From Kiritimatiellales bacterium (GTDB lineage Bacteria; Verrucomicrobiota; Kiritimatiellia; Kiritimatiellales; Tichowtungiaceae), in NCBI GenBank assembly GCA_041661845.1, contig JBAZTQ010000001.1:11361-75360 (forward strand): DNA of 64,000 nt, in the 5' to 3' direction. A model generated the notes under the pieces. That model saw only the letters and a list, made by a program, of their open reading frames with translations, searched no databases and was not told the DNA's origin. Shown here in pieces: positions 1,807-46,015 of this stretch (position 1 is the first letter of the stretch; every line of letters begins with the position of its first letter). A program made the position numbers and the translations under genes.

Positions 1807-1809
1807 GGC

Positions 1810-13190: not shown

Positions 13191-13202
13191 GGAGAAGACG
13201 GT

Positions 13203-14810: not shown

Positions 14811-15836
14811 ATGCAAAAGGCAAATTACGCGCGGTCATTCCTGCTTTGCTTGTTTTCTGCGGCAATGGTCTGTGCGCAGGACATGGTGCTGAGCGGTGCG
14901 GGAGCATCGTTTCCGCATCCGTTATATAAACACTGGATTGATCTGTACGGTTCGAATACCGGGGTGCGCATAGCGTATGATTCGGTCGGCTCCGGCGAGG
15001 GCATCAGGCGGCTGCTGGCCGGTGAAGTGGATTTCGGGGCGACCGACGCATTTCTGACCGATGAGCAGCTCTCGAAGGTTCCCGGAACGGTGTTCCATCT
15101 GCCGACCTGTTCGGGTGCGGTGGTGCTGGCCTATCACCTGCCCGGCGATCCGCAACTCCGGCTGACGGAGGAAGTGATCGCGGATATTTTTATGCACAAT
15201 ATCAGTAACTGGTCAGACCCGCGGATCCGCAGGCTGAATCCGGATGTCAACCTGCCGAATCTGGACATCGTGGTATTGCACCGTTCGGACAGCAGCGGTA
15301 CCACGTTTGTGTTTACCGATTATCTGAGCAAAGTGAGTCCGGTTTGGCGGAAGTCAGTCGGATGCGGCAAAGATGTCCGCTGGCCGACCGGAATGGGACT
15401 GGAGCGCAATGACGGAATAGCCGGTTTTATCACGAAGATTCCGGGAAGTATCGGGTACATGGAATACGGTTTTGCCCGCAGCGGGAAGCTGGCTTGTGCT
15501 TCCGTACGCAACCGGTCCGGACGGTTCATTTATCCGTCCGAACAAACCATCACGGCGGCTGCCGATGTGGATATTCCGGATGATACCCGCATGATGATCA
15601 CGGATACCGCGGCGGAAAACGGCTACCCGATCTCCACGTTTAGCTGGCTGATTTTCCGTTCGAAGGACGGGCGGATAACCGGCGCTGAGGAAAAGGACAG
15701 GCAGTTACGCCGGTTTCTGGAGTGGATTCTGAAAGACGGGCAGCAGCAGTACGGCGGGCTGTATTACGCTCCGATGCCGTCCCGGGTGATTGGAAAAGCG
15801 GGCGCCGTGGTGCGACGCATGTATGAAGGACAGTAA
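14811..15836 (+). CDS. PstS-family phosphate-binding periplasmic protein
   Basis: A signal peptide followed by SGAGASFPHPLYKHWI... and ...SDSSGTTFVFTDYL..., typical of PstS. No pstCAB genes are adjacent. Confidence 0.8.
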   Translation: MQKANYARSFLLCLFSAAMVCAQDMVLSGAGASFPHPLYKHWIDLYGSNTGVRIAYDSVGSGEGIRRLLAGEVDFGATDAFLTDEQLSKVPGTVFHLPTCSGAVVLAYHLPGDPQLRLTEEVIADIFMHNISNWSDPRIRRLNPDVNLPNLDIVVLHRSDSSGTTFVFTDYLSKVSPVWRKSVGCGKDVRWPTGMGLERNDGIAGFITKIPGSIGYMEYGFARSGKLACASVRNRSGRFIYPSEQTITAAADVDIPDDTRMMITDTAAENGYPISTFSWLIFRSKDGRITGAEEKDRQLRRFLEWILKDGQQQYGGLYYAPMPSRVIGKAGAVVRRMYEGQ

Positions 15837-30243: not shown

Positions 30244-30935
30244 TTATAGTTCTTCCAGAATATTCAAAACCTGCCCTGCGGCCTGCTTCCAGCTCAACCG
30301 GGCATTGTAATCATCGAAAGCTTTCATCGCCAGTATGCGGTATTCGTACGGGTTGCTGAAGAGCTGTCCGATGCATTCTGCATAACGTCCCGCCGCTTCC
30401 GGATCAAAGCAGCAGCCGTTAATTCTTTCATGCACCGCCGTGGGAATGCCGCCGGTGTTTGAGGCGGCAACGGGCAGGGCGAAACTGCCGGCCTCCGGAA
30501 AAATATGGCCGAAACACTCGGCCCGGCACGGCTGAATCAGAAAATGGGCATTGCGATAGAGTTTGTTCCATCCGGGCGCGTTCATCCGGCTTGGCGGGCG
30601 AAAGAAAGCCCGCGCTTTTTACAAAATCCGGAACCCGTGCCATGTGCTTTGCCGGATCGGTTCCCAGAAAAGCAATCTCTGTCCGGAATCTCTGCGCATT
30701 CAGAATTTCCACGGCCTTGATGGCGGTATCGCCGCCTTTACGCTTCCACTCCACGCCGGTAAAAAGCAGGCGGCAGGCGGTGTGCAGATATTGCGCAGCG
30801 GTGCGAGATAGTGAAAACCGTCCGAATCTGCCTTGAGATGCAAAGCGATGTTTTCCGCTGCGCTGTGAATTCCGACAGCGCCCGGCTTGCGCGTTTCGGC
30901 GGACTGCCGGACATCCAGATGATGTGCAAAGGCCA
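30244..30935 (-). pseudogene. Glycosyltransferase family 4 (GT1-fold) remnant, 5'-truncated and frameshifted
   Basis: GT4 C-terminal-domain sequence is split over frames. The first piece is ...LLFTGVEWKRKGGDTAIKAVEILN...AFLGTDP...GFLSPAKPDERARMEQ. After a 1-nt frame change near 30556-30571 it continues as ...KLYRNAHFLIQPCRAECFGHIFPEAGSFALPVAASNTGGIPTAVHERINGCCF. A further frame change lies near 30795-30815. Only about 230 codons remain after the GT2 stop. Confidence 0.6.
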
Positions 30936-30938
30936 GAT

Positions 30939-32033
30939 TCACCGGTTGATCTCCCCGCTGGTGGTGCGGGTGTCGCGCCACAGTTTTTTAAGTTTTCCGC
31001 GGCAGAGCATATTCAGTGCCGACAGGAATTGAAGCGAGTCGAGCAGGACTTGAATTGCCAGCACCGGCAGATAGGCCGCTTTTTTGGAAGCACCGGAATT
31101 ACGGAACCGGATGAAGCGGGTCGCAATGAGAATCCGGTAAATGCGGATGTAGTCCCGGTTTTTAATTTTATCGGCAATCAGCTGGCGCGACCAGTCCGGT
31201 GCGGTGCGGTCCAGATTTTCAATCAGCGCGGCGGCATCCGGCGCATCCGTCAGATGCTGTTGCAGATATTCCCAGATCCAGCGGTGGATAATGTAGCCCG
31301 CGATCTGCCGCCGGTGTGTGGCCAGTACGTCGGGCAGACGGGTGTACGCTTCAAAAACGTGCGAAGCGGTGTCGGCCATCACCAGCCGGCGTGCCGCGTC
31401 TTCGGGCTCGGTGAGAAAGTTTGATACCGCCATCTTTTTTATAAAGCCGTCTTCAACGATGATCTGTTCGGGAATCCGGAGACGGCGCAGCCAGGCGGCG
31501 CGCGCGCAGTAAAGCTGTCCGCAAAGCTGGCCGGAAGCCGACTGGTTGATCCGTGCGCTGTGCATTGAAATCTGGTCGAGCAGGCTGTAGCGCTGTTTAA
31601 ATACGATATGTTTGACCGGCAGGTCGGTGCAGATGAATGCCTCCGGATTCTGCACCAGCTTATCGAGCATGTTACTGAGCGTGTCGGGCATGTATATCTG
31701 GATGTCGGCATCGACCATAAAAATGACGTCGGACTGCGGATCGGCCAGTTCATGGACGAATACATTCCATGCATTGGTTTTTCCCGGACGCTGCAACGAA
31801 TGAACCCGCCAGCGAAGGTTTTCCGGATGATTGAGTTTTTCGGCGGCAGCCAGCATCGCGCCGCTGGCGGCCAGTGTTGTATTGTCGGTGCAGCCGTTCG
31901 GCACGCAGATCAGTTCAACCTGATGTCCGCTCTGCCCGAGATTGCGCAGGAGACTCTGTGCAAAAACGCTGTGAATGGTCGAGCGGATGCTGCTCTCTTC
32001 ATTCCACGCCAGAATTCCGATGCTGATTTTCAT
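30939..32033 (-). CDS. Glycosyltransferase family 2
   Basis: MKISIGILAWNEESSIRSTIHSVFAQS...ICVPNGCTDNT...FMVDADI (the DxD region). It starts 4 nt after the PPTase stop. Confidence 0.8.
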   Translation of the reverse strand: MKISIGILAWNEESSIRSTIHSVFAQSLLRNLGQSGHQVELICVPNGCTDNTTLAASGAMLAAAEKLNHPENLRWRVHSLQRPGKTNAWNVFVHELADPQSDVIFMVDADIQIYMPDTLSNMLDKLVQNPEAFICTDLPVKHIVFKQRYSLLDQISMHSARINQSASGQLCGQLYCARAAWLRRLRIPEQIIVEDGFIKKMAVSNFLTEPEDAARRLVMADTASHVFEAYTRLPDVLATHRRQIAGYIIHRWIWEYLQQHLTDAPDAAALIENLDRTAPDWSRQLIADKIKNRDYIRIYRILIATRFIRFRNSGASKKAAYLPVLAIQVLLDSLQFLSALNMLCRGKLKKLWRDTRTTSGEINR

Positions 32034-32037: not shown

Positions 32038-32739
32038 TTAAAAACTTCGCAGGTTGACCGGAACCGGCGGAGCTTCAGAAACTACCGCCGCCGCATAGCC
32101 GGAATCAATTTTCAATGTTTGGAAAAACCACTGTCCACCGCTTCCGATATCCGGAGAAAACGGTTTTCCGCCGACCGGCACGGCGAAGGTGTTGAGGTTT
32201 TTATAGATGCCGGCGCCCAGCGCCTTTACATACGCCTCTTTTTTGGCCCAGATTTCAAAAAAACCGTCAGCCGGATTTTCCAGCGATTGAAAAAACAGCT
32301 GTTCTTCCGGCGCAAACCACCTTTTGGCGATGGTTGCCATATTCAGTCCGGTGCGCCGGAATTCAATATCTACGCCGACTGCCCGCCCGGCGGTGACGGC
32401 AATCAGCAGGCGGTCGCGGGAGTGTGATACGTTGAATTCCAGACTGCCGTCTTTCAAAAACGGTTTACCCTGAGCATTCCGGTTGAACTGCAGCGCGGAC
32501 GGATTGGTGTTCAGGCAGTCGGCCAGAACCCGGCGCAGCAATCCGCGACTCAAAATGAAGCCGTTGGCATCGTCCGGTTTGATGAATTTGGCTGCGCGTT
32601 CCAGTTCTTCACCGGTCAGCAGGCTGCGGCACAGGTCTCTATCATGCTGGTGGTCGGGCAGACGGATGTTCCAGACCTCGATCGATTTTCTAAAAGTTTC
32701 CATATTGTTCTTCATCAAAACCGGCGCTTTATATAGCAT
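32038..32739 (-). CDS. 4'-phosphopantetheinyl transferase, Sfp type
   Basis: ...FNVSHSRDRLLIAVT..AVGVDIE... and ...EIWAKKEAYVKALGAG.... It is divergent from the NRPS gene. The start could instead be the ATG at 32715. Confidence 0.85.
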   Translation of the reverse strand: MLYKAPVLMKNNMETFRKSIEVWNIRLPDHQHDRDLCRSLLTGEELERAAKFIKPDDANGFILSRGLLRRVLADCLNTNPSALQFNRNAQGKPFLKDGSLEFNVSHSRDRLLIAVTAGRAVGVDIEFRRTGLNMATIAKRWFAPEEQLFFQSLENPADGFFEIWAKKEAYVKALGAGIYKNLNTFAVPVGGKPFSPDIGSGGQWFFQTLKIDSGYAAAVVSEAPPVPVNLRSF

Positions 32740-32771: not shown

Positions 32772-35700
32772 ATGAATTTAAAAGACGACCAGACGCTGAT
32801 TGCCCGGTTTATCAGACAGGCCGCCGAACATCCGGGCCTCGCCGCTGTCCGTTACGGCGAAACCGTTATCTCATACGCCGAACTGAATCGCCGCTCACTG
32901 GAGCTTGCCCGGGTGTTGCGTGCGAACGGAGCGGGGCGCGATGTGCCGGTTGCCATCTGTCTGGAGCGCTCGCCGGAGCTGATTATTGCAATACTGGCGG
33001 TTCTGCGTGCCGGCAGCGCTTATTTGGCGCTCGATCCCGTTTATCCGCAGGAACGCCTTATGTTTATGCTGGCGGACAGCGGCGCGCCGGTTGTGATCAC
33101 GACAGCGGCGCGCCGGTCTCATTTCATTGCCGGTGCCGCGGTTGTTGCACCGGATGAATCGTTGCCGTTTTCAGCTGACTGGGAACTGCCGGAAACTGAT
33201 GATCTCGCCTACGTTATTTATACCTCCGGCTCCACCGGAAAACCGAAAGGGGTGCTTTGTCCCCATCGCGGCGCGCTCAATATGCTTGATGATGCGCAGC
33301 ACCGCCGCCCGCTCGGCCTTGACGACGTGTGCAGCTGGTGGACCGGCGTTGGTTTTGATGTTTCCGTCTATGAAATTTTTTCGCCGCTCATTTGCGGGGC
33401 TGCGCTGTTTATCATGCCGGATGAAATCCGTCTGGATGCTGCCAGATTAATGGATTGGCTCTGTGCAAAAAAGATCACTTCCGCTTATATCCCGCCGGCC
33501 ATGATCGCCGATCTGGAAATCTGGACGCGCGAGCATTCCGGGCATAGCCGCCTGCGCCGCCTGCTTACCGGTGTCGAACCGGTTCCGGAACGGCGGCTGA
33601 TGAATATTGCCCGCGCTGTGCCTGAGCTGTGTATCATCAACGGCTACGGCCCGACCGAGGCCGCAGTTTATTGCACCTGCTATTGCGTGGACGTTTCCGG
33701 CGACCCGCACCGTAGCACGCCGATCGGCAAGGCACTTGAGGGCGTTGAAATTTTTCTGTTCAACAGCCGGATGGAACCCGTTGCCGGCGGTGAAGAGGGC
33801 GAAATCTATATCGGCGGCGTGCAGGTGGCGCGCGGGTACCTGAACTGTCCCCGCCTGACGGCGGAACACTTCCTTGAAACACCGTACGGGCGGCTCTACC
33901 GCACCGGCGACCGGGCCGTGCGGCTGCCCGGCGGCAATCTGCTGTTTTCCGGACGCACGGACCGGCAGATAAAAATTCTCGGCTGCCGCGTGGAGCCCGG
34001 CGAAATTGAATCCGCACTTTGCCGGATCGACGGGGTGCGCGAAGCGGTGGTGGCGGTTTGCGAAGATATTCCCGGCATCCAGCGCCTCGTCGGCTATTAC
34101 ACCATACAGGGAGCCTGCACCCTTACGGACGATAAAATACGCCGCTCGCTTGAACGTGAACTGCCGGCATATATGATTCCGTCGCTGTTTATCCGGCTGA
34201 CGCATATTCCGCTCACGCCCAACGGTAAAACCGACCGCAAGGCGCTGCCCCCGCCGGCCCCCGCCGCTCTCCGGCAATTGCGCGCCGGGGAGTTCAAGCC
34301 GCCGGTTTCGGCAACCGAGAAGACGGTCGCAGAGCTGTTCGCAGCGGTACTGAAGACCGGCCCGGCCGGATTGAACGACCACTTTTTTGCACTCGGCGGT
34401 CACTCGCTGCTGGCCACGCAGCTGGCGTCGAAAATACAGACCGAGCTGCGGGTGGATGTTTCGCTCAGGGATATTTATGAAAATCCGGCGGCGGGACAGC
34501 TTGCCGCTTTGATCAGCTCCCGTCACAGCACAGGAACCGTTTCCGGCGACATTCCTCTTGCCGCCGGGCGTTCTTCATATCCGCTGACACCGTCGCAGCG
34601 TACCATGTGGATGCTTCATCAGTCTGACCGTTCGGGCATTCTGTCTAATATTCCCGAAGTGGTTCATCTGCGCGGCCCGCTGAATATTGAAGTGATGGAA
34701 CGTGCGTTCAACGAAGTTATCCGGCGCCACGACTCGCTGCGTATGGTTTACACCATGGAAAAAGGCGAAATGGTGCAGCGCCCGCTCGACAAAGTTCATG
34801 TGCCCGTCAAGTTCACGGATTTGAGCGGGCTCGATGCCGCCGAACGTGACCGCCGCGCAGCGGAAATGCGGCTGAAAAACGGCCGCCGTATTTTTGATCT
34901 TTCCGAAGGCCCGCTCATTTATGCTGAATTGGTCAAGCTGGCCGAAAACTATTTTCAGCTTTTCTTTAACATTCATCACATCGCTGCTGACGGCTGGGGC
35001 ATCAGCCTGTTTAACACGGAATTCGCTGAACTTTATGAGGCATTTCTCGATGGCCGTCCATCGCCGCTGCCGCCGGTCGGCCGGCAGTATTCCGATGTCG
35101 CCGCATGGCTTGATGAACGCATCCGGAGCGGCGCGCTGCAATCGCAGCTTGATTACTGGAAAGAAAAGCTGGCTGCACCGCGTCCCGATCTCCATTTCCC
35201 TCTCGATCACAAACGGCCTGAAGTTTCTGCGCACCGCGGTACGCGTCATGCTTTCGTCATTTCGCCGGACATCACTAAGGCGCTCACGGCGCTGGGCCGC
35301 CGCGAAAGCGCTTCGCTGTTTATGGTGCTGTCCGCCGTCTGGCAGACGCTGCTGCATCGCGCCACCGGCTCGGCCGACGTCATTACCGGCACCGCTATCG
35401 CCAACCGCAACCACCCGCAGACCGAAAAAATCATCGGCACTTTTATCAACGCACTCTCATTGCGCACTGATTTCACCGGCGCACTTTCATTTTCCGCCGT
35501 GCTTGACAGAGTACGGCGCGCCGCCCTCGAAGCTTACGCACAGCAGGATATACCGTTCGAAAAAGTCATGGAGGCCGTCAATGACGGAACGCACCATCCT
35601 GTTTTCCGCAACTCGCTCATTCTGCATAACATGGCGCTGCCGGCCAAACAGTTTGCCGGCCTCACACTGACGGATGATGAAGTCGGCAACGGCACGTCCA

Positions 35701-38700
35701 AAATGGACATGCTGCTCTACTTCATCGAGCGCGACGGGCAGCTGGAAGGGCAGCTGGAATATGATGCGGAACTTTTCGATGCCGCCACCGCCGAACAGAC
35801 GGCGGCCGATTTTTTGATGCTGGCGCGGCAGGCGGTCAAAGATCCGTGCCGTCCGCTCGGCGACTATCTGCGGACGGGCGGCGAAGAGGCACCAACCTGT
35901 TTTGTAATCGGCGAGGGTTCCCTGTGTCTGCGCTGCACCGAAGTGCTGCGCCGCCGGGGCCTGCGGGTGCTCGGACTTATTTCGCCTGATACCGCCAACC
36001 GCCGCCGGGCGAAAGAAAAGGGTGTGCCGTGGCATCATCCGGATGAAGGGTTCGTCAAAATTCTTTCTGCGCAGCCGTTCGATTTTCTCTTCAGCATCGT
36101 CAACAGTTTCATTCTCAAGCCGGAGGTGCTTGCGCTGCCGCGCCGCTGTGCCATCAATTATCACGACGCGCCGCTGCCGCGCTATGCCGGGGTTTATTCC
36201 ACCGCGTGGGCCATTATCAACCGCGAGCGGTTCCACGGTATCAGCTGGCATTTGATGGCGGATGAGGTGGACGCGGGCGACCTGCTCAAGCAGCGTACCG
36301 TGAAAATTTTTGAAAACGACACTTCGTTCACGCTTAACGCCCGCTGCTACGACACAGCCATTGAAGCACTCAGCGAACTGGCGCTGGAACTGGTCGAAGG
36401 GCGCGAAATCCGTACGCCGCAGGATCTGCGCAAACGCAGCTATTATCCGCTTTATAAACGGCCGGTTTACGGCGGTATGATCGACTGGAGCCGCCCGCAG
36501 GCCGAAACCGATGCACTGCGCCGCGCGCTTGATTTCGGGAATCAGCCTAACGATCTCGGTCTTCCAAAAGTACTGTTTGGCGGCGAACTCTATGTGCTTA
36601 AATCCGACGGCACCATGTTTACCCTGGACGGCGATCCGACTGAGTTTCGCCTTTCCGCGGTCGGCGAGTCGGCCGCCTGGGTTGTCAATGAACCGTTGTT
36701 TTTAAACCTTGGAAAAAAGCTGGAAGCGCTGAATGCTGAACTGGCCGGGCATGAACATTTCTGGGTGCGCTGTTTCGAAAACCTCCAGCCTTTGGAAATC
36801 CCCGCCGGTATTGACCGTGCGAACCATCACTATACGCTTACCGACTTGCCGTTATTTCTGTGTTTCCTTTCCCGTTTCTGTTCACAGGAACATTTCACTG
36901 CCGGGTGGAAAACCGAAACACCGGTGCCGGAATTTTCCGCCGATATTGTTCCCCTTCATGTCGAGCTGAATACCAATGAGTTGCTGGCGGATAATCTGTT
37001 CCGCGCGGAAAAGTCGCTTGAAACCTGCCGGAAGCGGAAAACCTATGTGCGCGACCTGTTCCAGAGGTTTCCGTCGCTGCGCAAGCCGCCGGTTTACCAT
37101 GTTTTACTTGGTGAAAACGAAGTGCGCTGCCCGGCTGAAATATGGGAGCACTTTCGCGCCTTCCGCCAGGCAGCAGACCTCCGTCAGCCGCTCTATGCTC
37201 AATCGGTGCTGACGGTACACGATCGGCGTGATCTCGAAAAATTCCAGGTGTGCACTCCCGGTTTCGATGAAACCCGCTGCATCCACGAGCTCTTCGAGGC
37301 ACAGGCTGAAAAGACACCGCGCGCGACAGCCGTTGAGGGAGCGGATAAAAAACTGACCTATGCTGAACTTAATTTGCGGGCCGATGCGCTGGCGGTGCGG
37401 TTGCAGGCACTGGGAGTCACGCCCGACACACCGGTCGGCCTTTTTGTAAATCGCTCGCCCGAAATGTGCATTGGTATTCTTGGTATTCTCAAAGCGGGCG
37501 GCGCCTATGTTCCGCTCGATCCCGACTATCCAGCGGACCGCCTCGAATTTATCATGGGCGACATGGCTATGCCGATGATCGTCACCGTCGAAGCGCTCAG
37601 CGAACGGGTTGAGGCGGCGGGACGTGCAGTTGTTTGCATCGACCTGATTAAAGACGCCGGAACTAAACCGGACGTCCGTGTCACAGGCTCCAATCTGGCA
37701 TACATCTTCTACACGTCCGGTTCCACCGGCAAACCGAAGGGTGTGATGGTGGAACACCGCAATGTGGTGAACCACTGTCTGGCCTCGGTTCAAACGTATG
37801 GCATCGGTGCCAAAGACCGCGTCCTTCAGTTTTTCTCGATGAACTTCGACGGCTCGGTCGAAGAGCTTTTCCCGGCGTGGGCTTCCGGCGGTACGGTGGT
37901 GCTGCGCAGTAATGAACTGTCCAGTTCGGTTTCAGAGTTTGAAGAATTTATTGCGCGCCGGAAAATCACTGTCGCCGATCTGCCGACGGCCTACTGGCAC
38001 GAATGGGTGCGCAACCTGCGCGCTGTGCCGCAAATTCTGCGCGCCGTCATTATCGGCGGCGAAAAAGTTTCAGCGGAACTCTGCCGCGTCTGGCTGCAGA
38101 AAGACGGCGGCAAGGTTCGGCTTTTCAATACCTACGGCCCGACGGAATGCACGGTGGTGGCCACCGTTCATGAACTGACCGGTGCTGTCACCGGCGAAGT
38201 GCCGATCGGTCTGCCGATTGCCGGCACGGCGCTCTACGTGGCGGACACGCGGCAACAGCTTGTACCGCTGGGTATGCCCGGTGAACTGCTCATCGGCGGC
38301 GAAGGCGTTGCACGCGGTTATCTCAACCGGCCCGATCTGACCCGCGAAAAATTCATCCGCAATCCGTGGGGCGACGGAATGCTTTACCGCACCGGCGACC
38401 TCGTTTGCCGTCAGCCGGACGGAAGTATCGGCTTTATGGGGCGTGTGGATAATCAGGTTAAGATCCGCGGTTTCCGCATTGAGCCCGACGGAATCGCCGC
38501 CGTATTGGAGCAGCACAGCGACATTGCTCAGGCGGTTGTGACAGCCCGTGACGATCTTTCGGAGCAGAAGGAACTGGCCGCTTACTACATTCCGGAACCG
38601 GGCCTTTCGCCGTCGGTCAGCGAATTGCGTGCTTTTCTCGCCGCCAACCTGCCTGAGTACATGGTTCCTGTTGCTTTCATGGAACTGGATGAATTTCCGG

Positions 38701-39818
38701 TTGCGCCCGGCGGAAAGGTCGACCGGAAGGCGTTACCATCGCCGGTAAAATCTGTGACCCGATCGTTTAATAACTATGCGGAGCCCGTGACAATTCAGCA
38801 AAAAACGCTGGCGGAAATCTGGTCGGCGGTGCTCGGTATGGATCCGGTCGGCATCCACGATAATTTCTTTGATCTCGGCGGCCATTCGCTGCTGGCCATT
38901 CAGCTGGTCGAACGGATTCTTTCCTCCGGACTGTCGCTCACCGTCGCACAGCTCTTTCAATATCCAACGATTGCACAAATGGCTGAAATCATCGGAACAC
39001 GCGGTGATACGGAATATAAATCGCTGGTCTGCCTCAAGGAAGGTGTGCCGGGCCGTGTGCCGTTATTCCTGCTGCACAGTGCGCCGGGCGATCTGCTGGG
39101 TTATTCGAATCTGGTACACAATCTGCCGCCGGAGCAGCCGGTATACGGCTTTCAGTCGCTCGGGCTGATTGATCCGGACAATGTCCATTCAACCATTCCG
39201 GAAATGGCCGCTCATTATGTTTCCGTGCTGCGCGAATTTCTGCCGGCCGGGCCGTATCTTCTCGGCGGCTGGTGCTATGGCGGCTATGTCGCCATGGAAA
39301 TGGCCCGCCGGCTGATGGAGCAGGGATGCACTGTGAAACTGCTCGCGCTGATCGACGCATGGGCCTATCCGCCCGCCGAGCGGCGAATCGCTTTCTATTG
39401 GCGGCGCCTCCGGCTCATGCGCATCATCGGACTCCGGCAATGGCTGGATATCATTTTTAAACGCGCCATGAATTTGTTTCATGATGAAGCCGCCGACGCC
39501 GTCAAAATGCTCGACGGCGTGCAGGCCACGGAGGGGGTGCTGGCTAACCGCGAAGAGGTTTACCGCCGCAACCGCGAAGCCGCGCTGCGCTACAACCCGC
39601 GGTTTTATCCCGGTCACGTCGCGCTTTTCCGTTCAGACGAGCTGGCGGCCTGGTTTCTTCCTGATATGACTATGGAATGGGCGGTGCTCACGGAAGATCA
39701 GGATATCTATCTGATTCCCGGCGGGCACCGCGATATGCTGCGCGAACCTGCTGTCAAGGTGCTCGCCGCGCGTCTCAACGACAGTATCGAAAAAGCATTA
39801 CAACAAAGCCGGAGCTGA
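32772..39818 (+). CDS. Bimodular non-ribosomal peptide synthetase: A1-T1-C-(formyltransferase-like)-(unassigned ~245 aa)-A2-T2-TE
   Basis: A1: LAYVIYTSGSTGKPKGV, NGYGPTE, YRTGD, GRTDRQIKILGCRVEPGEIE, NGKTDRKAL. T1: FFALGGHSLLA (Ser545). C: NIHHIAADGWG (aa 735-741). Fmt-like region: INYHDAPLPRYAG...EVDAGDLL. A2: LAYIFYTSGSTGKPKGV, NTYGPTE, YRTGD, GRVDNQVKIRGFRIEPDGI, GGKVDRKAL. T2: FFDLGGHSLLA (Ser2039). TE: LFLLHSAPGD, GGWCYGG, IPGGHRDML. Confidence 0.97.
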   Translation: MNLKDDQTLIARFIRQAAEHPGLAAVRYGETVISYAELNRRSLELARVLRANGAGRDVPVAICLERSPELIIAILAVLRAGSAYLALDPVYPQERLMFMLADSGAPVVITTAARRSHFIAGAAVVAPDESLPFSADWELPETDDLAYVIYTSGSTGKPKGVLCPHRGALNMLDDAQHRRPLGLDDVCSWWTGVGFDVSVYEIFSPLICGAALFIMPDEIRLDAARLMDWLCAKKITSAYIPPAMIADLEIWTREHSGHSRLRRLLTGVEPVPERRLMNIARAVPELCIINGYGPTEAAVYCTCYCVDVSGDPHRSTPIGKALEGVEIFLFNSRMEPVAGGEEGEIYIGGVQVARGYLNCPRLTAEHFLETPYGRLYRTGDRAVRLPGGNLLFSGRTDRQIKILGCRVEPGEIESALCRIDGVREAVVAVCEDIPGIQRLVGYYTIQGACTLTDDKIRRSLERELPAYMIPSLFIRLTHIPLTPNGKTDRKALPPPAPAALRQLRAGEFKPPVSATEKTVAELFAAVLKTGPAGLNDHFFALGGHSLLATQLASKIQTELRVDVSLRDIYENPAAGQLAALISSRHSTGTVSGDIPLAAGRSSYPLTPSQRTMWMLHQSDRSGILSNIPEVVHLRGPLNIEVMERAFNEVIRRHDSLRMVYTMEKGEMVQRPLDKVHVPVKFTDLSGLDAAERDRRAAEMRLKNGRRIFDLSEGPLIYAELVKLAENYFQLFFNIHHIAADGWGISLFNTEFAELYEAFLDGRPSPLPPVGRQYSDVAAWLDERIRSGALQSQLDYWKEKLAAPRPDLHFPLDHKRPEVSAHRGTRHAFVISPDITKALTALGRRESASLFMVLSAVWQTLLHRATGSADVITGTAIANRNHPQTEKIIGTFINALSLRTDFTGALSFSAVLDRVRRAALEAYAQQDIPFEKVMEAVNDGTHHPVFRNSLILHNMALPAKQFAGLTLTDDEVGNGTSKMDMLLYFIERDGQLEGQLEYDAELFDAATAEQTAADFLMLARQAVKDPCRPLGDYLRTGGEEAPTCFVIGEGSLCLRCTEVLRRRGLRVLGLISPDTANRRRAKEKGVPWHHPDEGFVKILSAQPFDFLFSIVNSFILKPEVLALPRRCAINYHDAPLPRYAGVYSTAWAIINRERFHGISWHLMADEVDAGDLLKQRTVKIFENDTSFTLNARCYDTAIEALSELALELVEGREIRTPQDLRKRSYYPLYKRPVYGGMIDWSRPQAETDALRRALDFGNQPNDLGLPKVLFGGELYVLKSDGTMFTLDGDPTEFRLSAVGESAAWVVNEPLFLNLGKKLEALNAELAGHEHFWVRCFENLQPLEIPAGIDRANHHYTLTDLPLFLCFLSRFCSQEHFTAGWKTETPVPEFSADIVPLHVELNTNELLADNLFRAEKSLETCRKRKTYVRDLFQRFPSLRKPPVYHVLLGENEVRCPAEIWEHFRAFRQAADLRQPLYAQSVLTVHDRRDLEKFQVCTPGFDETRCIHELFEAQAEKTPRATAVEGADKKLTYAELNLRADALAVRLQALGVTPDTPVGLFVNRSPEMCIGILGILKAGGAYVPLDPDYPADRLEFIMGDMAMPMIVTVEALSERVEAAGRAVVCIDLIKDAGTKPDVRVTGSNLAYIFYTSGSTGKPKGVMVEHRNVVNHCLASVQTYGIGAKDRVLQFFSMNFDGSVEELFPAWASGGTVVLRSNELSSSVSEFEEFIARRKITVADLPTAYWHEWVRNLRAVPQILRAVIIGGEKVSAELCRVWLQKDGGKVRLFNTYGPTECTVVATVHELTGAVTGEVPIGLPIAGTALYVADTRQQLVPLGMPGELLIGGEGVARGYLNRPDLTREKFIRNPWGDGMLYRTGDLVCRQPDGSIGFMGRVDNQVKIRGFRIEPDGIAAVLEQHSDIAQAVVTARDDLSEQKELAAYYIPEPGLSPSVSELRAFLAANLPEYMVPVAFMELDEFPVAPGGKVDRKALPSPVKSVTRSFNNYAEPVTIQQKTLAEIWSAVLGMDPVGIHDNFFDLGGHSLLAIQLVERILSSGLSLTVAQLFQYPTIAQMAEIIGTRGDTEYKSLVCLKEGVPGRVPLFLLHSAPGDLLGYSNLVHNLPPEQPVYGFQSLGLIDPDNVHSTIPEMAAHYVSVLREFLPAGPYLLGGWCYGGYVAMEMARRLMEQGCTVKLLALIDAWAYPPAERRIAFYWRRLRLMRIIGLRQWLDIIFKRAMNLFHDEAADAVKMLDGVQATEGVLANREEVYRRNREAALRYNPRFYPGHVALFRSDELAAWFLPDMTMEWAVLTEDQDIYLIPGGHRDMLREPAVKVLAARLNDSIEKALQQSRS
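35898..36540 (+). other. Formyltransferase (Fmt/GART N-terminal domain)-like domain embedded in the NRPS (aa ~1043-1256)
   Basis: CFVIGEGSLCLRC...FDFLFSIVNSFILKPEVLALPRRCAINYHDAPLPRYAGVYSTAWAIINRERFHGISWHLMADEVDAGDLL. Asn1129, His1131 and Asp1167 are spaced exactly like Asn108/His110/Asp146 of E. coli Fmt, as I remember that numbering. Confidence 0.7.
39021..39815 (+). other. Type I thioesterase domain of the NRPS with Cys in the nucleophile position (GWCYG)
   Basis: VPLFLLHSAPGDLLGY...PYLLGGWCYGGYVAMEMA...LALIDAW...IPGGHRDML. TGC at 39273-39275 encodes Cys2168, where GxSxG normally has Ser. Confidence 0.85.
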
Positions 39819-42800
39819 GCTGTTGCGACGGTGCTGTTTGAAAAAGTTCCACATCACGGTGTTGGCATCAAAAGTGGCGGTTTTTCCGTAGGTCTTTTCC
39901 GGCAGCTGCCCGGCGCGGCCCGGCCAGGTGTGTCCTCCGTTTTCGATGCGGCAGAAGATTACTTCGGCGTGATTGCGGGGACAGGAATATTCCGTGCGGG
40001 TAACGTGCGTTCCGCTGTCAGCGTCCTGAGTAAGTTCGGTCTGAACAGGTACTTTGTCGCAACCGTTCTTTTCGGCCCACCACGCGATGTATTGATTGGC
40101 GGAAAGACCGGAGCCGCGGTGAGTGCCCGCGCTTCCGCCGCTGTAATAGGCAAACGGATCGGCGGTGCCGTGAAAATAGAGAACCGGCACCGGAACGGCG
40201 GGTTTCCAGTCATCGGCCGCGCGGGTACCGATGGTTCCGGCAACCGGCGCGATGGCGGCGATTCGCCCTGAAAGTTCAACGGCGATCCGGTTGGCCATGC
40301 TGGCACCGTTGGAGTAGCCCGTCACATAAACGCGTTCGGGGTCGGCGTGAAAGTGGCGGACGGCTTGATCAATCAGCGCGGAAATAAAAGCGGTGTCGTT
40401 GACTTCGGGAACGCGCCCGTCGTTCCAGTACAGCTTGCCTTTGTACAGGCCGACGGCATTCGGATAGGCGGCAATAAAACCGTTCTGATCCGCTGTGTCG
40501 GACATTCCCGTCAGCTTTTCCATTTCGCTGCCGGTCATCTGCCCGCCGTGCAGGACGATCACCATCGGCAGCGGCCCGCCGGAAGTCTTTCCGGACGGCA
40601 GGTGAAAATGGCAGGTGCGCGGGCGGCCGTCAACCGTCAGCGTGCAGTCGGAGACAGGTTGAGGGGTTTTTCCGGAAAGCGGGTGGCGCTTGAAAAAGTC
40701 CCAGATAAAACCGGTGGCATCGAGTTTGTCAGTTGTTTGGCCGACCCAGCTTTCCGGCAGCAGACTCTTGCCGCCGGCCCAGGTATGCCCCTGACCGGCG
40801 ACGGTCACAAAAACGATCGCCGGATTTTCCGGCACGGAACCGAAGGTTTCGATGCGGACGCCGTTGTTTTCGCTTGTCGTTTCCGCCGTTTCGGGACAGC
40901 CGATGGCCTTGGCCCATTTCACGATGGAGTCCCGTACCGGCGGTTTTGGCTTGGCCCGCATCGAATCACTGCTGCCGCCGAATTTCATCTTCGGTACGCC
41001 GCCGGCGAGGAGATTGAGCGGGTCGTCTGCGCCCGTGAGATAACACATGGGAAGGGGGCGCTCCAGTCTGTCCGGCTCAATCCAGCACGCGCCGGCATCA
41101 GGCGCAATGGCGGCGATCCGCTTTGATGCCGCAGCGCCGAACCGGAACGCCATCGAAGCGCCGTTGGAAAAGCCGGTGACAAAAATCCGCCGCGAATCCA
41201 CAGCAAATTTTGCACACAGCTCGTCGAGCACCGCGTTGAGAAAAGCGACGTCATCAACCGGCGTCTGGCCGGGATAAAAACGGTCGGAACCGTCATTCCA
41301 GAGCTGCGGATTGCGAGAAAAACTGCCCGGCTTTGAAGGATCGCGGGCCAGCGCATCGGGAAAGGCGGCAAGGAAATTTTCCTGATCGGCCTTGCCGCCC
41401 CAGCCGGTTTCCTGCGCGGCGGCTTTGCCGGTTCCGCCGCCGCCGTGCAGCATGACCACCGCCGGAACCGCTTTCTTTCCGTCATACTGCGGCGGCACGT
41501 GAACAGTGTAATGCCGGTTGAGTTCTCCGCACCGGAGAGTGAATTCATGATCACCGGGAGGCACCGCCGCTTTTTCCGGCTGCTGCGGAGTGCTGATCAG
41601 TGCTTCAACTTGCGATTTTGTCATGCAGCGGGTTTCCGGATAATAAACGCCCATCCGTTTGCGGACAGCATCCGGGTTGCGGTTGCGTACGGAAAGATCG
41701 GCCTCCTGCCAGGTGACGAGCTGCGGCGCGTATTTCCAGACATTGGAAGCGGTGGACATAATGCGCATATTGATGCTCAGCGTTGAGCCGGCCGGCCAGT
41801 CTCGCCAGGTGATGCCGTTGGCTTCTGTTGCACAGGCCGGACGATCCTCTTTGCGCCCGATCACGATGGTGTAAAAACCGTTCGAACCGGTCGCAACCGT
41901 TTCGTCGGTGACGTTGACAACCGGTGTCAGGCGGGTCGGGCTTCCGGCGTGCATGGAAAGATTCCAGTAGCGCAGTTCATTGTCCGGCTCCATGACCGGA
42001 TTGCCCTGAAGAGTGTGCGGCACGCGCGGCATTTTTCCGCGGAAGACCAGCATCTGTCCGGGGCCGATGTTGGCGGAGCTGACCAGATAGGTGTTGTAGA
42101 TGTGGTGATCGCTGACGTGTTCATCATTGCCGGGTGGCGGCGTATCCGGGCCCATCTCTCCGAAGGCCCGGCGGTAGCGGGCGGACAGTTCACAGCGGCC
42201 TCCGGCAAGGTTGTCTTTTCCGAGGTAGTCTTTGAAATAGGTAACGAGCCACGGCGTCTGGAACACCTTGTATAGCATGATTTGTCCATCCGGCCCGTCG
42301 AGCAGCCGGTGGGTTTCCGGATTGTACGTGCCGGGTTGTCCACCAGCCTGCACGGCTTTGCGGGCATAGTCGCGCAGCAGTTCGTCGGCTTCTTTTTCTT
42401 TGAGGGAGAGACCGTCAGCCAGGGCAGGATTTTCCTGAAGCGAATAGCCGGCCACGAATTTACGGAGGTTCACCGGCATGGCGCGGCTGACGGGTGCCAG
42501 TACCGGTTCTTTACCCGGAAGCTGCAGGCGGATCACCGGCGGCTCCACGCCGCCGTACGGATCGTAATGATCAGGCAGATACATGCGCATATAAACCACC
42601 GGGCCGCGCGCTTTCGGACTGCCGAAAAGTTTGCCCGGCTCCGTCGTCGCGGTTCCGCCGATGCGCAGGTTGCCGGGTGCGCGGTACGGCGGAACCGCCG
42701 CCGCGCCGTTCAGCAGCACCGGATCGCCGTCACGCAGTTCAAAAGTGATATGAAAGTGGCGCTTTTGCGCGTTGCGGTCGGCACCGGGCCGGAAGGGATT

Positions 42801-43241
42801 GATGCTGCCGGGGTCGGGGACGATGTCTTCGTCCAGCAGATGGATTTCCGGAAGACCCGTGCCGTCGCTGGCGACCAGCGCTTTGCCGCTCCACGGCGCG
42901 GTCACCTGAAAACTCATCATGCGGGCGTGCGGGAAATCGCCTTCGATCAGAATTTTTGTTCCTTCGAGGAGCGGCTTATCGAACCGCCACAGATAATAGG
43001 TGTTGTCCGGCGGCTCGCCTTTGGCGTGGTTGAGATAACCCGATGCTTTCCAAGCTTCCGGGCTTTCCGCGAAAATTTTAAACCACTGGGCGCGCAGATT
43101 TTTTGCGCCGGCCCAGTCGGCAGGCCATGTGATCTGCTCCGGACGGCCGGTGTCAGTGGTTCCCCACTGTCCGGGAACCGGCTTTGCTTCGGCACCGAAA
43201 GCGATGAGAACGAGGCTGAGAATGGCAGAAATGTATTTCAT
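39798..43241 (-). CDS. Large secreted protein: ~560-aa N-terminal region of unknown function plus two tandem PHB-depolymerase/LpqC-type (CE1-like) esterase domains
   Basis: Signal peptide MKYISAILSLVLIAFGAEA. Esterase 1: VVMLHGGGGTGKAAA...VTGFSNGASMAFRF. Esterase 2: MVIVLHGGQMTGSEM...VTGYSNGASMANRIA. I chose the ATG at 43241; the track ORF extends to 43307. The 3' end overlaps the NRPS 3' end by 21 nt (convergent). Confidence 0.8.
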   Translation of the reverse strand: MKYISAILSLVLIAFGAEAKPVPGQWGTTDTGRPEQITWPADWAGAKNLRAQWFKIFAESPEAWKASGYLNHAKGEPPDNTYYLWRFDKPLLEGTKILIEGDFPHARMMSFQVTAPWSGKALVASDGTGLPEIHLLDEDIVPDPGSINPFRPGADRNAQKRHFHITFELRDGDPVLLNGAAAVPPYRAPGNLRIGGTATTEPGKLFGSPKARGPVVYMRMYLPDHYDPYGGVEPPVIRLQLPGKEPVLAPVSRAMPVNLRKFVAGYSLQENPALADGLSLKEKEADELLRDYARKAVQAGGQPGTYNPETHRLLDGPDGQIMLYKVFQTPWLVTYFKDYLGKDNLAGGRCELSARYRRAFGEMGPDTPPPGNDEHVSDHHIYNTYLVSSANIGPGQMLVFRGKMPRVPHTLQGNPVMEPDNELRYWNLSMHAGSPTRLTPVVNVTDETVATGSNGFYTIVIGRKEDRPACATEANGITWRDWPAGSTLSINMRIMSTASNVWKYAPQLVTWQEADLSVRNRNPDAVRKRMGVYYPETRCMTKSQVEALISTPQQPEKAAVPPGDHEFTLRCGELNRHYTVHVPPQYDGKKAVPAVVMLHGGGGTGKAAAQETGWGGKADQENFLAAFPDALARDPSKPGSFSRNPQLWNDGSDRFYPGQTPVDDVAFLNAVLDELCAKFAVDSRRIFVTGFSNGASMAFRFGAAASKRIAAIAPDAGACWIEPDRLERPLPMCYLTGADDPLNLLAGGVPKMKFGGSSDSMRAKPKPPVRDSIVKWAKAIGCPETAETTSENNGVRIETFGSVPENPAIVFVTVAGQGHTWAGGKSLLPESWVGQTTDKLDATGFIWDFFKRHPLSGKTPQPVSDCTLTVDGRPRTCHFHLPSGKTSGGPLPMVIVLHGGQMTGSEMEKLTGMSDTADQNGFIAAYPNAVGLYKGKLYWNDGRVPEVNDTAFISALIDQAVRHFHADPERVYVTGYSNGASMANRIAVELSGRIAAIAPVAGTIGTRAADDWKPAVPVPVLYFHGTADPFAYYSGGSAGTHRGSGLSANQYIAWWAEKNGCDKVPVQTELTQDADSGTHVTRTEYSCPRNHAEVIFCRIENGGHTWPGRAGQLPEKTYGKTATFDANTVMWNFFKQHRRNSSAPALL

Positions 43242-43254
43242 CAAACTTTTCCTT

Positions 43255-43689
43255 TTACTGTTCAGTACCGGAGGATGACGGGTTCCACAGTTTCCGCAGA
43301 CGCTCAAACCGTTCGTCCAGTTTCTGCACCTGTTCCGGTGTAAGCAGCTTGTTGATCTCCAGCCGGGCCGCTTGCAGCCGCATCAAACCCCTCATCCGGC
43401 TTCTGGCCTGCAGCACCCGCAGATCATCGGTTGTCTGTGAGACAATCGTCTGCACTGCGGTTTTCTGTTCGCCGGTCAGATGGAGATATTTGTCCATGCG
43501 GGCGATAGTACGATCGACCGCCTTTTCCGGTTCGCGCGCCGCTTCCCGCATCCGGTGGACAATGGCCGAAACGGTCAGTGCGCTGCCGAGCACCGTACCG
43601 CCGGTAAAAATTCCCAGCATGAGTAGTACAGTCCACAGCCGGCGGCGGGCCGGGCGCGGAAGAGATTCAGTTGATTTGTCCTTTTTCAT
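43255..43689 (-). CDS. Periplasmic LTXXQ-motif protein (Spy/CpxP family), membrane-anchored
   Basis: One N-terminal TM (LWTVLLMLGIFTGGTVLGSAL) and two LTxxQ motifs (LHLTGEQKTAV and LLTPEQVQKL). I chose the ATG at 43689. Confidence 0.7.
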   Translation of the reverse strand: MKKDKSTESLPRPARRRLWTVLLMLGIFTGGTVLGSALTVSAIVHRMREAAREPEKAVDRTIARMDKYLHLTGEQKTAVQTIVSQTTDDLRVLQARSRMRGLMRLQAARLEINKLLTPEQVQKLDERFERLRKLWNPSSSGTEQ

Positions 43690-43709
43690 TTCGATTCCTT
43701 TCCGCCGGG

Positions 43710-43946
43710 TCATCCGGCAAACATTGCAAAACAGGTGCTCCACGGATCGGTAAACAGGTCGAGCAGCGGCACGGTCAAAACTGCGGCGGCGGCTGAACAG
43801 GCAAGGGTTGTAACAGCCGGCCAGACCGGTGCACGGCGTGTCCGGCGGAGCCGGGGGATTACACGGTCGGCGATATCGAGCGGGAAGGCGGCGTCCATGC
43901 GGGCGCAGGCGGCCAGTTGTTCTACAGCTTTGAGGCGGTCATTCAT
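43710..43946 (-). CDS. Small single-pass membrane protein, possible anti-sigma factor
   Basis: 78 aa with one TM (VWPAVTTLACSAAAAVLTVPLL). Its start overlaps the upstream stop (ATGA). It lies in an ECF-sigma operon but has no zf-HC2 motif. Confidence 0.4.
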   Translation of the reverse strand: MNDRLKAVEQLAACARMDAAFPLDIADRVIPRLRRTRRAPVWPAVTTLACSAAAAVLTVPLLDLFTDPWSTCFAMFAG

Positions 43947-45178
43947 TTTATGTCTCCTTGTTTCAATTCACAGGAACCGGCTTTGCGTCCTGTGAGTGTG
44001 CGGAAATGTTCACCGAGTCCGTTCGGAGTTCCGGCACGGATGGCGGCGAAGGCCCTTGGATTCAGACGGCGCGTGATCTCATGATAGGGAATCCGGTCAA
44101 GCTCCGCAGAGTAGTCGAGATCGGCATAGAAATAACTGCTCCAGTAAAAGGAGAGCAGGCTCACCTGTTCGTGGCGGGCGAGATCGAACATGAGCGTCAT
44201 GAATTTACGATCCAGCGGTTGCCAGAACGAGAAAGCATCCCGACGGAAAACCTCCGCAGACGCAGCCACGTTTTCGCTGCCCGGACGCGCTGTTTTGTAA
44301 AGCCAGGATTCGTCGATACAGCATTGTTTCCCGGCGGCGCGGGCGATGCGGGCCGTCTGCCGGGCATTGTCCATGAATTTTGCGTTGACCGGGTAAACAT
44401 GAACGGCGAGGTAGTCCAGTTCCGGAATCGCGGCAAGACTCCGCGCGAAATCCAATGAGCTCCAGCTTCCTGACCCGGCACCGCACAGGATGCCCGTGTG
44501 ATCCCAGCCTTGGAGAGCGTTTTGCACAACCTCAGCAATCACAGCAGGTGTGTTAAGCTCGCGCAGGCCGGTCAGTTTGGCGTGAGTGTCGGGTTCCGTG
44601 AGCATATCGAGGTAATCGGGTTTCAGTTCGCGGGCCACCCGCATAACCATCAGGCGGTAATCGGCCTTGAATTTTTCGATGGTGAGATCGCGGTAAATAC
44701 CCTGAAACGGACTGAAGGGCGTATCAGCAAAGATAACCGAGACATGAGGCATGACCTTGATGCCGAGTTTATGCGCTTCGTCCACAACCTGCCGGTAGAA
44801 GGCCAGATATTCATCATTGCGGGGAAAGTCCGGCGTCAGCAGCGGATATTGAAGCGCGAACTTTACGCAGTCCACTCCCAGTTCGCGGAAGCTGCGCAGG
44901 GTGGTGACCACCGCCGGCATGGTTTCCGGCATCAGGAGCGCTTCGCCGCGGTTGGAATTCGCCACAAGCAGATCCGTGCAAAGCAGCGGGCCGTGCTGAT
45001 CCGGCTTCGTACCTGCTGCGGACTCAATCCGGAGCTGTTCATCGAGACTTCGCTCCAGCGTGCTGTACAGCGCGGTGTAGGCGGCAGGCACAGCATTCTG
45101 TGCAAAGCCCGGGCCGCCGCCGGGCATCGCCGCAGAAAACAGAAGTACGCCTAATAACCGGGTGTAATTCATCTGCAT
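43943..45178 (-). CDS. Secreted TIM-barrel glycoside-hydrolase-like protein (clan GH-A-like), putative
   Basis: Signal peptide MQMNYTRLLGVLLFSAAMPGG. ...DYLDMLTEPD... could be an NEP-like acid/base motif and ...CCIDESWLY... a candidate nucleophile Glu. The family assignment is tentative. Confidence 0.5.
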   Translation of the reverse strand: MQMNYTRLLGVLLFSAAMPGGGPGFAQNAVPAAYTALYSTLERSLDEQLRIESAAGTKPDQHGPLLCTDLLVANSNRGEALLMPETMPAVVTTLRSFRELGVDCVKFALQYPLLTPDFPRNDEYLAFYRQVVDEAHKLGIKVMPHVSVIFADTPFSPFQGIYRDLTIEKFKADYRLMVMRVARELKPDYLDMLTEPDTHAKLTGLRELNTPAVIAEVVQNALQGWDHTGILCGAGSGSWSSLDFARSLAAIPELDYLAVHVYPVNAKFMDNARQTARIARAAGKQCCIDESWLYKTARPGSENVAASAEVFRRDAFSFWQPLDRKFMTLMFDLARHEQVSLLSFYWSSYFYADLDYSAELDRIPYHEITRRLNPRAFAAIRAGTPNGLGEHFRTLTGRKAGSCELKQGDIK

Positions 45179-45187
45179 ATGTCTTCC

Positions 45188-45742
45188 TTATTTGTGATGG
45201 ATAAACAACTCTCTCAGCCGGTTGCGGGCCCGGTGCAGCCGGACTTTTACCGCGGCAAGGCTCCAGCCGGTCCGGTCGGCAATCTCTTGGGTTTCGCAGT
45301 CGTCAAAATAAAACAGAGTCAGCACCAGACGATCCGCCGGATTCAACCGGGCAAGCAGATGGAACAGCATCTCCCCGGCTTCGGAGCAGGTTAAGGTGCC
45401 GGGCTCCGCCGGAAGCTCCGGCAGGTTGCCGGGCAGAGCCGTTTCCCGCTCGCGGCAGCGGGTTTGCATTTTCCAGTAGCGGTAGCCGGTACGGGTGGCC
45501 AGCCGCCGCAGCCAGTGCAGAAACGGCACTTTCCCCCGGAAGCTTTTCAGGCTCAGGTAGGCTTCCACAAAAACCTCCTGTACCAGTTCTTCGAGCACCA
45601 CGGGATCGCGCGAAAAGCGGCGCATCTGCCCGGCAATGAGATGCTGGTGTTTTACAACCAGCCGGCGGTACGCCTCGCCGTCGCCCTTCAGGCTGGCCGC
45701 GATGTCGTTCCTTTCTTCCGTATTGTCCGCATTTGTCATCAT
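45188..45742 (-). CDS. ECF-type RNA polymerase sigma factor
   Basis: Region 2: YRRLVVKHQHLIAGQMRRFSRDPVVLEELVQEVFVEAYLSL. Region 4: LNPADRLVLTLFYFDDCETQEIADRTGWSLAAVKVRLHRARNRL. I chose the ATG at 45742; the track ORF begins at a GTG at 45835. Confidence 0.85.
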   Translation of the reverse strand: MMTNADNTEERNDIAASLKGDGEAYRRLVVKHQHLIAGQMRRFSRDPVVLEELVQEVFVEAYLSLKSFRGKVPFLHWLRRLATRTGYRYWKMQTRCRERETALPGNLPELPAEPGTLTCSEAGEMLFHLLARLNPADRLVLTLFYFDDCETQEIADRTGWSLAAVKVRLHRARNRLRELFIHHK

Positions 45743-46015
45743 ACGTTCATGAATTCCGTTCCACGGCAGGCCGAATTCTGTTGCTGCCGCAGGTTCCCGC
45801 AACTCGATATCAATTGCAATGCTTCGGCTGTCCACAGTTTAATCCTCATTCTTCGCCGCTGTTACAGTAATAGTGGACGGAAAGATCCGGCAGGTTACAT
45901 TCTCCGGCAACTTTTTGTTCAACGGATTAATGGCAGAAAGGATGGCTGACGAAATTCCTTCGCACACCGGTGCGCTTTTGTTAGCTTCTTCCGCCATTAA
46001 CCCGAAGGAGTGTTT

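Follow-up and report, generated by a model that had tools for sequence, protein, structure and literature searches.

A formyltransferase domain directly behind a condensation domain: a conserved layout of two-module nonribosomal peptide synthetases in Kiritimatiellales and other bacteria

How can a nonribosomal peptide synthetase (NRPS) keep a formyltransferase domain directly behind a condensation domain that looks able to work? The question is raised by a gene in a 64,000-nucleotide stretch of contig JBAZTQ010000001.1 of a Kiritimatiellales bacterium (assembly GCA_041661845.1, positions 11,361 to 75,360 of the forward strand), and this whole stretch is called the window in the following. A single open reading frame (ORF) of 2348 amino acids (aa) at 32772..39818 on the forward strand (+) reads A1-T1-C-F-(FmtC remnant)-(C-lobe remnant)-A2-T2-TE, where A stands for adenylation, T for carrier, C for condensation, F for formyltransferase and TE for thioesterase domains, and FmtC for the C-terminal subdomain of Fmt. 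Two reviews place F domains exclusively at the N-terminus of initiation modules, since a formylated amine cannot be extended (PMC8949500, PMC10510592). The initial annotation of the window had seen a logic conflict in this order, in that a formylated alpha-amine on T2 would block the C domain. We found that the order is conserved in several phyla and that the residue loaded by A2 is predicted to carry two amines.

The ORF is a real gene and no assembly artefact, since intact orthologues of 2345-2371 aa are present in many independent metagenome-assembled genomes (MAGs) of Kiritimatiellota and one of 2516 aa in the isolate Desulfocicer vacuolatum DSM 3385. Pfam finds two AMP-binding and two PP-binding domains in the protein, together with Condensation, Formyl_trans_N and Thioesterase, and agrees with the motifs from which A1, T1 (Ser545), C (HHIAADG at 735), A2, T2 (Ser2039) and TE had been read at these positions.

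Judged from sequence and structural model, the F domain is real and looks active. Its catalytic N-terminal subdomain (35895..36416, +; aa 1042-1215) begins only ~8 residues behind the C domain. Formyl_trans_N (PF00551) matches aa 1114-1202 with an E value of 2.1e-15 and 57.4 bits against a cut-off of 26.1 (59.9 bits on the excised F region), and the match lies between Condensation and the second AMP-binding domain, just where it had been expected from the resemblance of aa ~1043-1256 to the N-terminal domain of Fmt/GART formyltransferases. A motif search of the protein located INYHD at 1128 and EVDAGD at 1165, and in the HMMER alignment the catalytic-type residues N1129, H1131 and D1167, already singled out by eye, are in register with N102, H104 and D140 of ArnA, which we take to be the catalytic residues of that enzyme. 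They are invariant in a 21-sequence family alignment as well as in 22 full-length orthologues. The AlphaFold model of aa 1034-1508 has a mean pLDDT of 84.6, and Foldseek relates it to structures of ArnA, Fmt, FDH and WbkC (E ~1e-18, target TM 0.65-0.86), where the matches come from the F part and do not inform the region after it. The folate-binding loop reads HDAPLPRYAG compared with HxSLLPxxRG in ArnA and WbkC, the Arg being shifted and the Ser replaced by Ala. This variant is the consensus of the entire NRPS-embedded family, N-terminal starter modules included, and is kept together with the triad in the 22 orthologues from four phyla. Moreover, no domain of the protein is better conserved than the N-terminal subdomain of F (82% identity within a phylum, 45% between phyla, 13% invariant columns).

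The C domain in front of F (34575..35870, +; aa 602-1033, HHIAADG at 735-741) matches the Condensation profile PF00668 almost end to end (1.7e-91, profile positions 4-445 of 456), and its closest relatives in the PDB are DhbF (5u89), Txo1/2 and TycC. In sequence it resembles ordinary LCL-type domains, which normally take an alpha-amine. It is preceded by T1 (34284..34541, +; aa 505-590), where Pfam detects PP-binding in two stretches and Ser545 lies in FFALGGHS at 538. The canonical C-A platform is absent. Instead, ~470 aa comprising F, the FmtC remnant and the C-lobe remnant lie between C and A2, and the platform position beside A2 is occupied by the remnant lobe.

The ~290 aa between the N-terminal subdomain of F and A2 (the X region) gave zero Pfam matches when aa 1210-1508 of the window protein were searched alone, and aa 1216-1500 were identified solely via homologues and profile-profile comparison. 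Homologues carry Formyl_trans_C (PF02911) in this place, and behind it proteins P0019 and P0006 match Condensation below threshold over profile positions ~185-456 of 456. The equivalent of the former is a trimmed Fmt C-terminal, beta-barrel subdomain at 36417..36671 (+; aa 1216-1300), for which the AlphaFold model gives short strands and one low-confidence stretch. The latter corresponds to a remnant of the C-terminal lobe of a C domain at 36672..37271 (+; aa 1301-1500), which is without HHxxxDG. When an X-region profile from 190 family members was compared by hhalign with a profile from 91 complete C domains, the probability was 98.4% (E 7.8e-15) and the alignment covered C positions 144-440 of 441, that is, everything past HHxxxDG. 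The loose likeness to the C-terminal half of a C domain, which had been noticed in ~245 aa after F, is thereby borne out. Since the C-lobe remnant passes into A2 through a stretch that reads like a canonical C-A linker, F appears structurally tied to A2-T2. In Kiritimatiellota this part is shortened: F and A lie 201 aa apart, as against ~315 aa elsewhere, and the Fmt C-terminal barrel and the remnant lobe both carry deletions. The remnant lobe is the least conserved region (60% identity within a phylum, 20% across phyla).

F, FmtC, C-lobe remnant and C-A-type linker together form the anatomy of a large, mostly unannotated family, F-FmtC-Cremnant-A-T, which is normally N-terminal and to which the window protein belongs in trimmed form. 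An exhaustive phmmer search with aa 1034-1508 against 1.84 billion representatives returned at least 1287 proteins at E<=1e-30, and the architectures reported here come from this search, an earlier word-indexed homologue search having given mostly fragments. Among the best 150 phmmer matches, F mostly starts at residues ~1-10, in F-X-A-T, F-X-A-T-TE and F-X-A-T-C-A-T architectures. F-FmtC-Cremnant-A-T thus represents a common kind of starter module in NRPSs. Alignment-based extraction of the A codes of N-terminal modules gave DILQLGLIW (Gly), DFWNIGMVH (Thr), DLYNLSLIW (Cys), DVWHLSLID (Ser), DLTKIGEVG (Asn/Asp), DASTVAAVC (Tyr), DVQFIAHVV (Pro) and DLFNNALTY (Ala). The recovery of such textbook codes validates the extraction and implies that these modules formylate the alpha-amine of their own T-bound residue. 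In the window protein, a module of this kind appears to be fused behind an A-T-C unit, which was among the explanations offered at the outset and matches the family anatomy.

The starter modules of this family differ from the paradigm of LgrA, the linear gramicidin synthetase (F-A-T; PDB 5ES5-5ES9, 6MFZ), in that half a condensation domain is kept as an interface to A. LgrA likewise has an Fmt/ArnA-fold domain inside an NRPS, and its F precedes the A domain, formylates the residue which that A domain loads onto T, and sits at the C-domain position on the A core (PMC10510592). However, it is distant to the window F (E ~1e-6, compared with 3e-16 for the sugar formyltransferase WbkC), and its 193 residues are joined straight to A (PMC10510592), whereas in the family to which the window F belongs an FmtC barrel and a C-lobe remnant of 200-315 aa follow. 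LgrA F is also N-terminal, while the window F starts at aa ~1042 after a complete A1-T1-C. Further published N-formyl starters are those of anabaenopeptilide (ApdA), kolossin and discodermin (PMC8949500, PMC12858407). The N-terminal F-FmtC-Cremnant-A-T starters, found in Nostoc, Stigonema, 'Entotheonella', Chloroflexota and Acidobacteriota, share with the window module the same F consensus, FmtC, C-lobe remnant and junction into A. They begin the protein and load many amino acids, whereas the window module is internal, behind a live-looking C domain, and its A domain is of the Lys/Orn type only.

The internal layout is not a one-off: sequence comparison identifies it as a conserved, widespread, uncharacterised family. 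Scanning one genome per species for the C-F junction, we found it in 16 loci of Kiritimatiellota (Pontiellaceae/Kiritimatiellales) with 62-85% identity, in Desulfobacterales/Desulfatiglandales (including D. vacuolatum DSM 3385), in Victivallales/Lentisphaeria, in Bacteroidales (Parabacteroides, Porphyromonas cangingivalis) and in the cyanobacterium Iningainema tapete. All full-length orthologues read A-T-C-F-X-A-T-TE and have 2345-2552 aa. The T1 Ser (GGxS), the N-x-H and D of F, the T2 Ser and the nucleophile elbow of the TE are kept in the 22 full-length orthologues. The second His of the C motif xHxxxDG is likewise present in 22/22, and the first in 21/22, one Lentisphaerae protein having CH for HH. 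A neighbour-joining tree of 227 F domains contains one clade in which 45 of the 48 leaves are internal. These 45 sequences come from Kiritimatiellota, Desulfobacterales, Lentisphaerae and Bacteroidales, and the window F sits in this clade, inside the wider F-FmtC-Cremnant-A-T family. No residues that set F of the internal clade apart from N-terminal F were found at the thresholds used.

The Iningainema protein, a C-F-X-A-T-C part of a larger assembly line, is placed elsewhere in the F tree. In its locus (L023; I. tapete BLCC-T55, NZ_JACXAE010000025.1, 3792-15265 plus flanks), an A-T-C-A-T protein is followed by one with a TubC dock that reads C-F-FmtC-X-A(DAENIGTIV)-T-C, and the flanks hold genes for three family 2 glycosyltransferases (GT2), a DegT aminotransferase, a dTDP-sugar isomerase-like protein, a hexapeptide-repeat transferase and a P450. 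The locus may be a cluster for a glycosylated peptide. A further protein, P0016, which had been a candidate for A-T-F without a C domain, was rejected as a fragmented NRPS beside transposases and was not used. On its metagenome contigs (L081, L082 and L083, at 5.5-15 kb), A-T-F-FmtC, X-A, T and C-A-T-TE are split over separate ORFs adjoining Transposase_mut genes, and T1 and F have no complete C domain between them. Either the gene is in decay, or the layout may be one more variant of the architecture.

What sets the internal modules apart is the A domain that follows F. A2 of the window protein (37293..38756, +; aa 1508-1995, AMP-binding at 1508-1851) has the code DGEDIGTVV(K), and published codes are DGEDHGTVVK for Lys and DGEDHGTVTK for Orn (PMC12283262, PMC3207962). 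The pattern D.E[DN].G[TSA][VI]. fits all 38 readable internal A2 codes (38/38), compared with 11 of 113 in N-terminal modules, and it also fits DAENIGTIV, the A code next to the independent internal F of Iningainema. The first A domain (32772..34271, +; aa 1-500, AMP-binding plus AMP-binding_C at 411-486) behaves differently. Its code is DVYYLGGV[YC] in Kiritimatiellota and Desulfobacterales and quite different in Lentisphaerae and Bacteroidales, so that A1 differs between lineages and A2 does not. The window code, DVYYLGGVY(K), is one residue off the published Met code DVFYLGGVFK, and DVYYLGGVC of Desulfobacterales is one residue off DVFYLGGVCK, likewise published for Met (PMC12283262). In these sequences, internal F is strictly associated with Lys/Orn-type A2 codes, that is, with a residue predicted to have two amines. 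Such a residue removes the logic conflict, because one amine can accept the formyl group and the other can accept residue 1. For the acceptor problem raised by the initial annotation, the predicted diamino acid on T2 offers a solution, and the annotation's suggestion that a second, side-chain amine might be involved gains support from the A2 codes.

With fair confidence, we consider the protein to be a self-contained two-module NRPS that would make an N-formylated dipeptide via a diamino acid on T2. Served by the adjacent Sfp-type 4'-phosphopantetheinyl transferase (PPTase), the enzyme would consist of an A-T-C unit and, fused behind it, a formylating starter-type module. A2 would load the Lys/Orn-type diamino acid onto T2 (38805..38990, +; aa 2012-2073, PP-binding, with Ser2039 in FFDLGGHS at 2032), and F, which the C-lobe remnant would anchor to the A2 core as in the starter modules, would, as we infer, formylate one amine of the T2-bound residue. 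Family membership suggests N10-formyl-tetrahydrofolate as the formyl donor. The intact C domain would transfer the Met-like residue 1 from T1 to the remaining amine, and the TE would release the N-formylated dipeptide.

The TE (39060..39752, +; aa 2097-2327; Thioesterase, PF00975, 2.3e-24) was recognised from the start, but its nucleophile had gone unnoticed: it is Cys2168 (GWCYGG, aa 2166-2171; nt 39273-39275), so that the GxSxG serine of type I NRPS TEs is replaced. All orthologues from Kiritimatiellota and Lentisphaerae have Cys at this position, and those from Desulfobacterales and Parabacteroides have Ser (G[IVY]SFGG). Cys-TEs of the obafluorin (ObiF) and sulfazecin (SulM) pathways form strained rings.

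Which of the two amines is formylated can be argued from both domains. We lean slightly towards an N-alpha-formyl product with an N-epsilon isopeptide bond, because internal F shows no residues distinguishing it from the alpha-formylating starter F domains. The alternative is an ordinary alpha-peptide with an N-epsilon-formyl side chain, which the LCL-like C domain would favour. With an LCL-like C domain and an unchanged F, one of the two domains must behave unconventionally. In the more specific form, F would keep its ancestral alpha-N-formylation and thereby force the C domain onto the side-chain amine of Lys/Orn, giving N-alpha-formyl-N-epsilon-methionyl-lysine; we put this forward tentatively, as a possibility that is rather less probable than its converse. 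If it is true, a 'capping' domain acting in cis would divert the C domain to a side chain, an NRPS logic that has not been described, and an isopeptide small molecule would be conserved in Kiritimatiellota, Lentisphaerae, Desulfobacterales and Bacteroidales.

Several points weigh against the proposed pathway. The substrates are predicted from 9-residue codes, each of which is one mismatch from the published Lys and Met codes. The conservation of A2 within the clade could partly reflect inheritance instead of constraint, because outside it a readable code beside an internal F was found only once. In the Kiritimatiellota copies, the deletions in barrel and remnant lobe may matter for function. 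As to its two variants, the normal use of the alpha-amine by LCL-type C domains counts against the isopeptide, and the lack of F-specific changes counts against formylation of the side chain.

Among the other explanations, the one that survives best is that the formyl group goes to the alpha-amine of residue 1, while this is on T1 or when it forms the N-terminus of the dipeptidyl chain on T2, so that a conventional A-T-C-A-T-TE line would yield N-formyl-Met-Lys. The Met-like A1 of Kiritimatiellota and Desulfobacterales speaks for it, as Met and a formyltransferase would co-occur, and so do the C domain, which looks like an ordinary alpha-amine LCL domain, and the short C-F linker, by which T1 at the donor site may come near F. 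However, a layout for such chemistry, F-X-A-T-C-A-T(-TE), already exists in the family, which makes an F behind C unnecessary, and the C-lobe remnant with its C-A-type linker couples F to A2. Moreover, N-formyl-Met-Lys would leave unexplained why A1 varies while A2 is Lys/Orn-like in every readable case, against a background of ~10%. We therefore regard this explanation as unlikely.

A good deal less probable is that F acts off the carrier, its substrate being an amino sugar or the released product, with the neighbouring glycosyltransferases in mind, or that it uses a different acyl donor. The closest solved relatives of the window F are indeed the sugar N-formyltransferases WbkC and ArnA: together with the N-terminal domain of ArnA, WbkC gives the best sequence and fold matches, with the N/H/D triad in register. 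These enzymes are, in contrast, free-standing or fused to sugar-modifying domains, and they act on nucleotide-linked amino sugars outside NRPSs. GT2 and GT4-like genes flank the Kiritimatiellales loci, and the glycosyltransferase, aminotransferase and hexapeptide-repeat transferase genes of the Iningainema locus would suit such a role as well. However, the glycosyltransferase neighbours are not shared with Desulfobacterales, Lentisphaerae or Parabacteroides, nor with the divergent Kiritimatiellota loci L015 and L016, and the window has an intact NRPS although its GT4-like gene has become a pseudogene. In addition, LgrA F belongs to the same formyltransferase family, as its PDB match with the window F indicates, and acts on a T-bound amino acid (PMC10510592).

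That F is catalytically dead or structural, as a spacer or dimerisation element in an enzyme for a plain dipeptide or diketopiperazine, is the least probable explanation, since the trimming of the barrel and the C-lobe remnant and the altered folate loop, which might suggest it, are set against a loop that is the consensus of all NRPS-embedded members, a triad invariant in four phyla and a degree of conservation unlike that of a relic, and the initial 'inactive or repurposed' reading is disfavoured in its first part for the same reasons.

Formylation of a side-chain nitrogen of a diamino-acid-derived residue within a nonribosomal peptide is known from the stand-alone N5-hydroxyornithine formyltransferases (PvdF and those of malleobactin and ornibactin; PMC8949500). 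These differ in being separate enzymes that act in trans, on a hydroxylamine made by an O2-dependent monooxygenase. We rejected a corresponding hydroxamate product (from N-hydroxy-Orn or N-hydroxy-Lys), as neither the window nor the annotated loci L019, L022, L023 and L068 encode such an N-hydroxylase in the vicinity of the NRPS. The host lineages are expected to be mostly anaerobic.

Overall, the parts of this enzyme, an NRPS and a cis-acting formyltransferase domain, are known, and it is their arrangement that is undescribed but conserved. In the full texts searched, mostly from outside the subscription journals, neither an internal F domain nor the A-T-C-F-X-A-T-TE family is described, and we came across no characterised pathway with the order C-F-A, in agreement with the initial impression. 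The window gene and 44 others in four phyla combine a conserved, apparently active F directly behind a live-looking C domain with an A domain that is always of the Lys/Orn type. This suggests a testable rule, namely that internal formylation is tolerated if the acceptor residue carries two amines, and leads us to expect a family of formylated dipeptides in bacteria that are little studied and mostly uncultured. The arrangement may also bear on the grafting of tailoring domains into NRPSs and on NRPS engineering. Cultured carriers are available in D. vacuolatum DSM 3385 and I. tapete BLCC-T55.

The neighbourhood adds one recurrent partner. The Sfp-type PPTase gene (32038..32739 on the reverse strand (-); ACPS 1.9e-16, AASDHPPT_N 1.9e-12), which is divergent from the NRPS gene, represents the sole neighbour common across phyla. 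It is present in 12 Kiritimatiellota loci, the window included, and in two Bacteroidales loci, an ACPS gene following the Parabacteroides orthologue. A comparison of 39 internal-type loci revealed no shared tailoring, transport or regulatory gene besides it. The GT2 and GT4-like genes lie beside the NRPS in most Kiritimatiellales loci and are absent elsewhere and in L015 and L016. We treat them as local synteny because they are not shared across phyla. At 30247-30942 (-) the window holds the pseudogene remnant of a ~388-aa GT4-like gene, a class judged from sequence alone; tblastn resolves it into three fragments (aa 1-58, 204-290 and 265-388) in different frames, with the middle missing. The gene is intact beside the GT2 gene in nine related Kiritimatiellota loci.

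Other neighbours are specific to lineages. In the Parabacteroides MAG locus L068 (2885-13628), the genes of a class I/II aminotransferase, whose end overlaps the start of the NRPS gene by 4 nt, of a PPTase and of a class IV aminotransferase are packed against the NRPS gene, and in the Victivallales MAG locus L022 (14605-15219) a small S-adenosylmethionine-dependent methyltransferase gene is placed in the same way. Because of such lineage-specific genes and the different A1 codes, residue 1 may be non-proteinogenic in Parabacteroides and Victivallales.

Downstream of the window NRPS, ~6 kb (39798-45835) separate it from a D-Ala-D-Ala carboxypeptidase gene (46010-47089). They encode a 1169-aa protein with two esterase/alpha-beta-hydrolase regions, an LTXXQ protein, a 411-aa ORF without Pfam match and an extracytoplasmic function sigma factor. 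In loci L003 and L011 the carboxypeptidase homologue follows immediately after the NRPS, so that the stretch is probably an insertion in the window lineage or a deletion in the lineages of L003 and L011. The remainder of the window holds ordinary chromosomal genes, and there are no tRNA genes in it. Its first 6000 nucleotides (1-6000) have a strongly positive AT skew of 0.17-0.20 and the highest G+C of the window (0.58-0.61). They encode on the reverse strand membrane subunits of the NADH-dehydrogenase/Mrp type (NADHdh and two Proton_antipo_M), and the AT skew probably reflects the composition of these membrane-protein genes.

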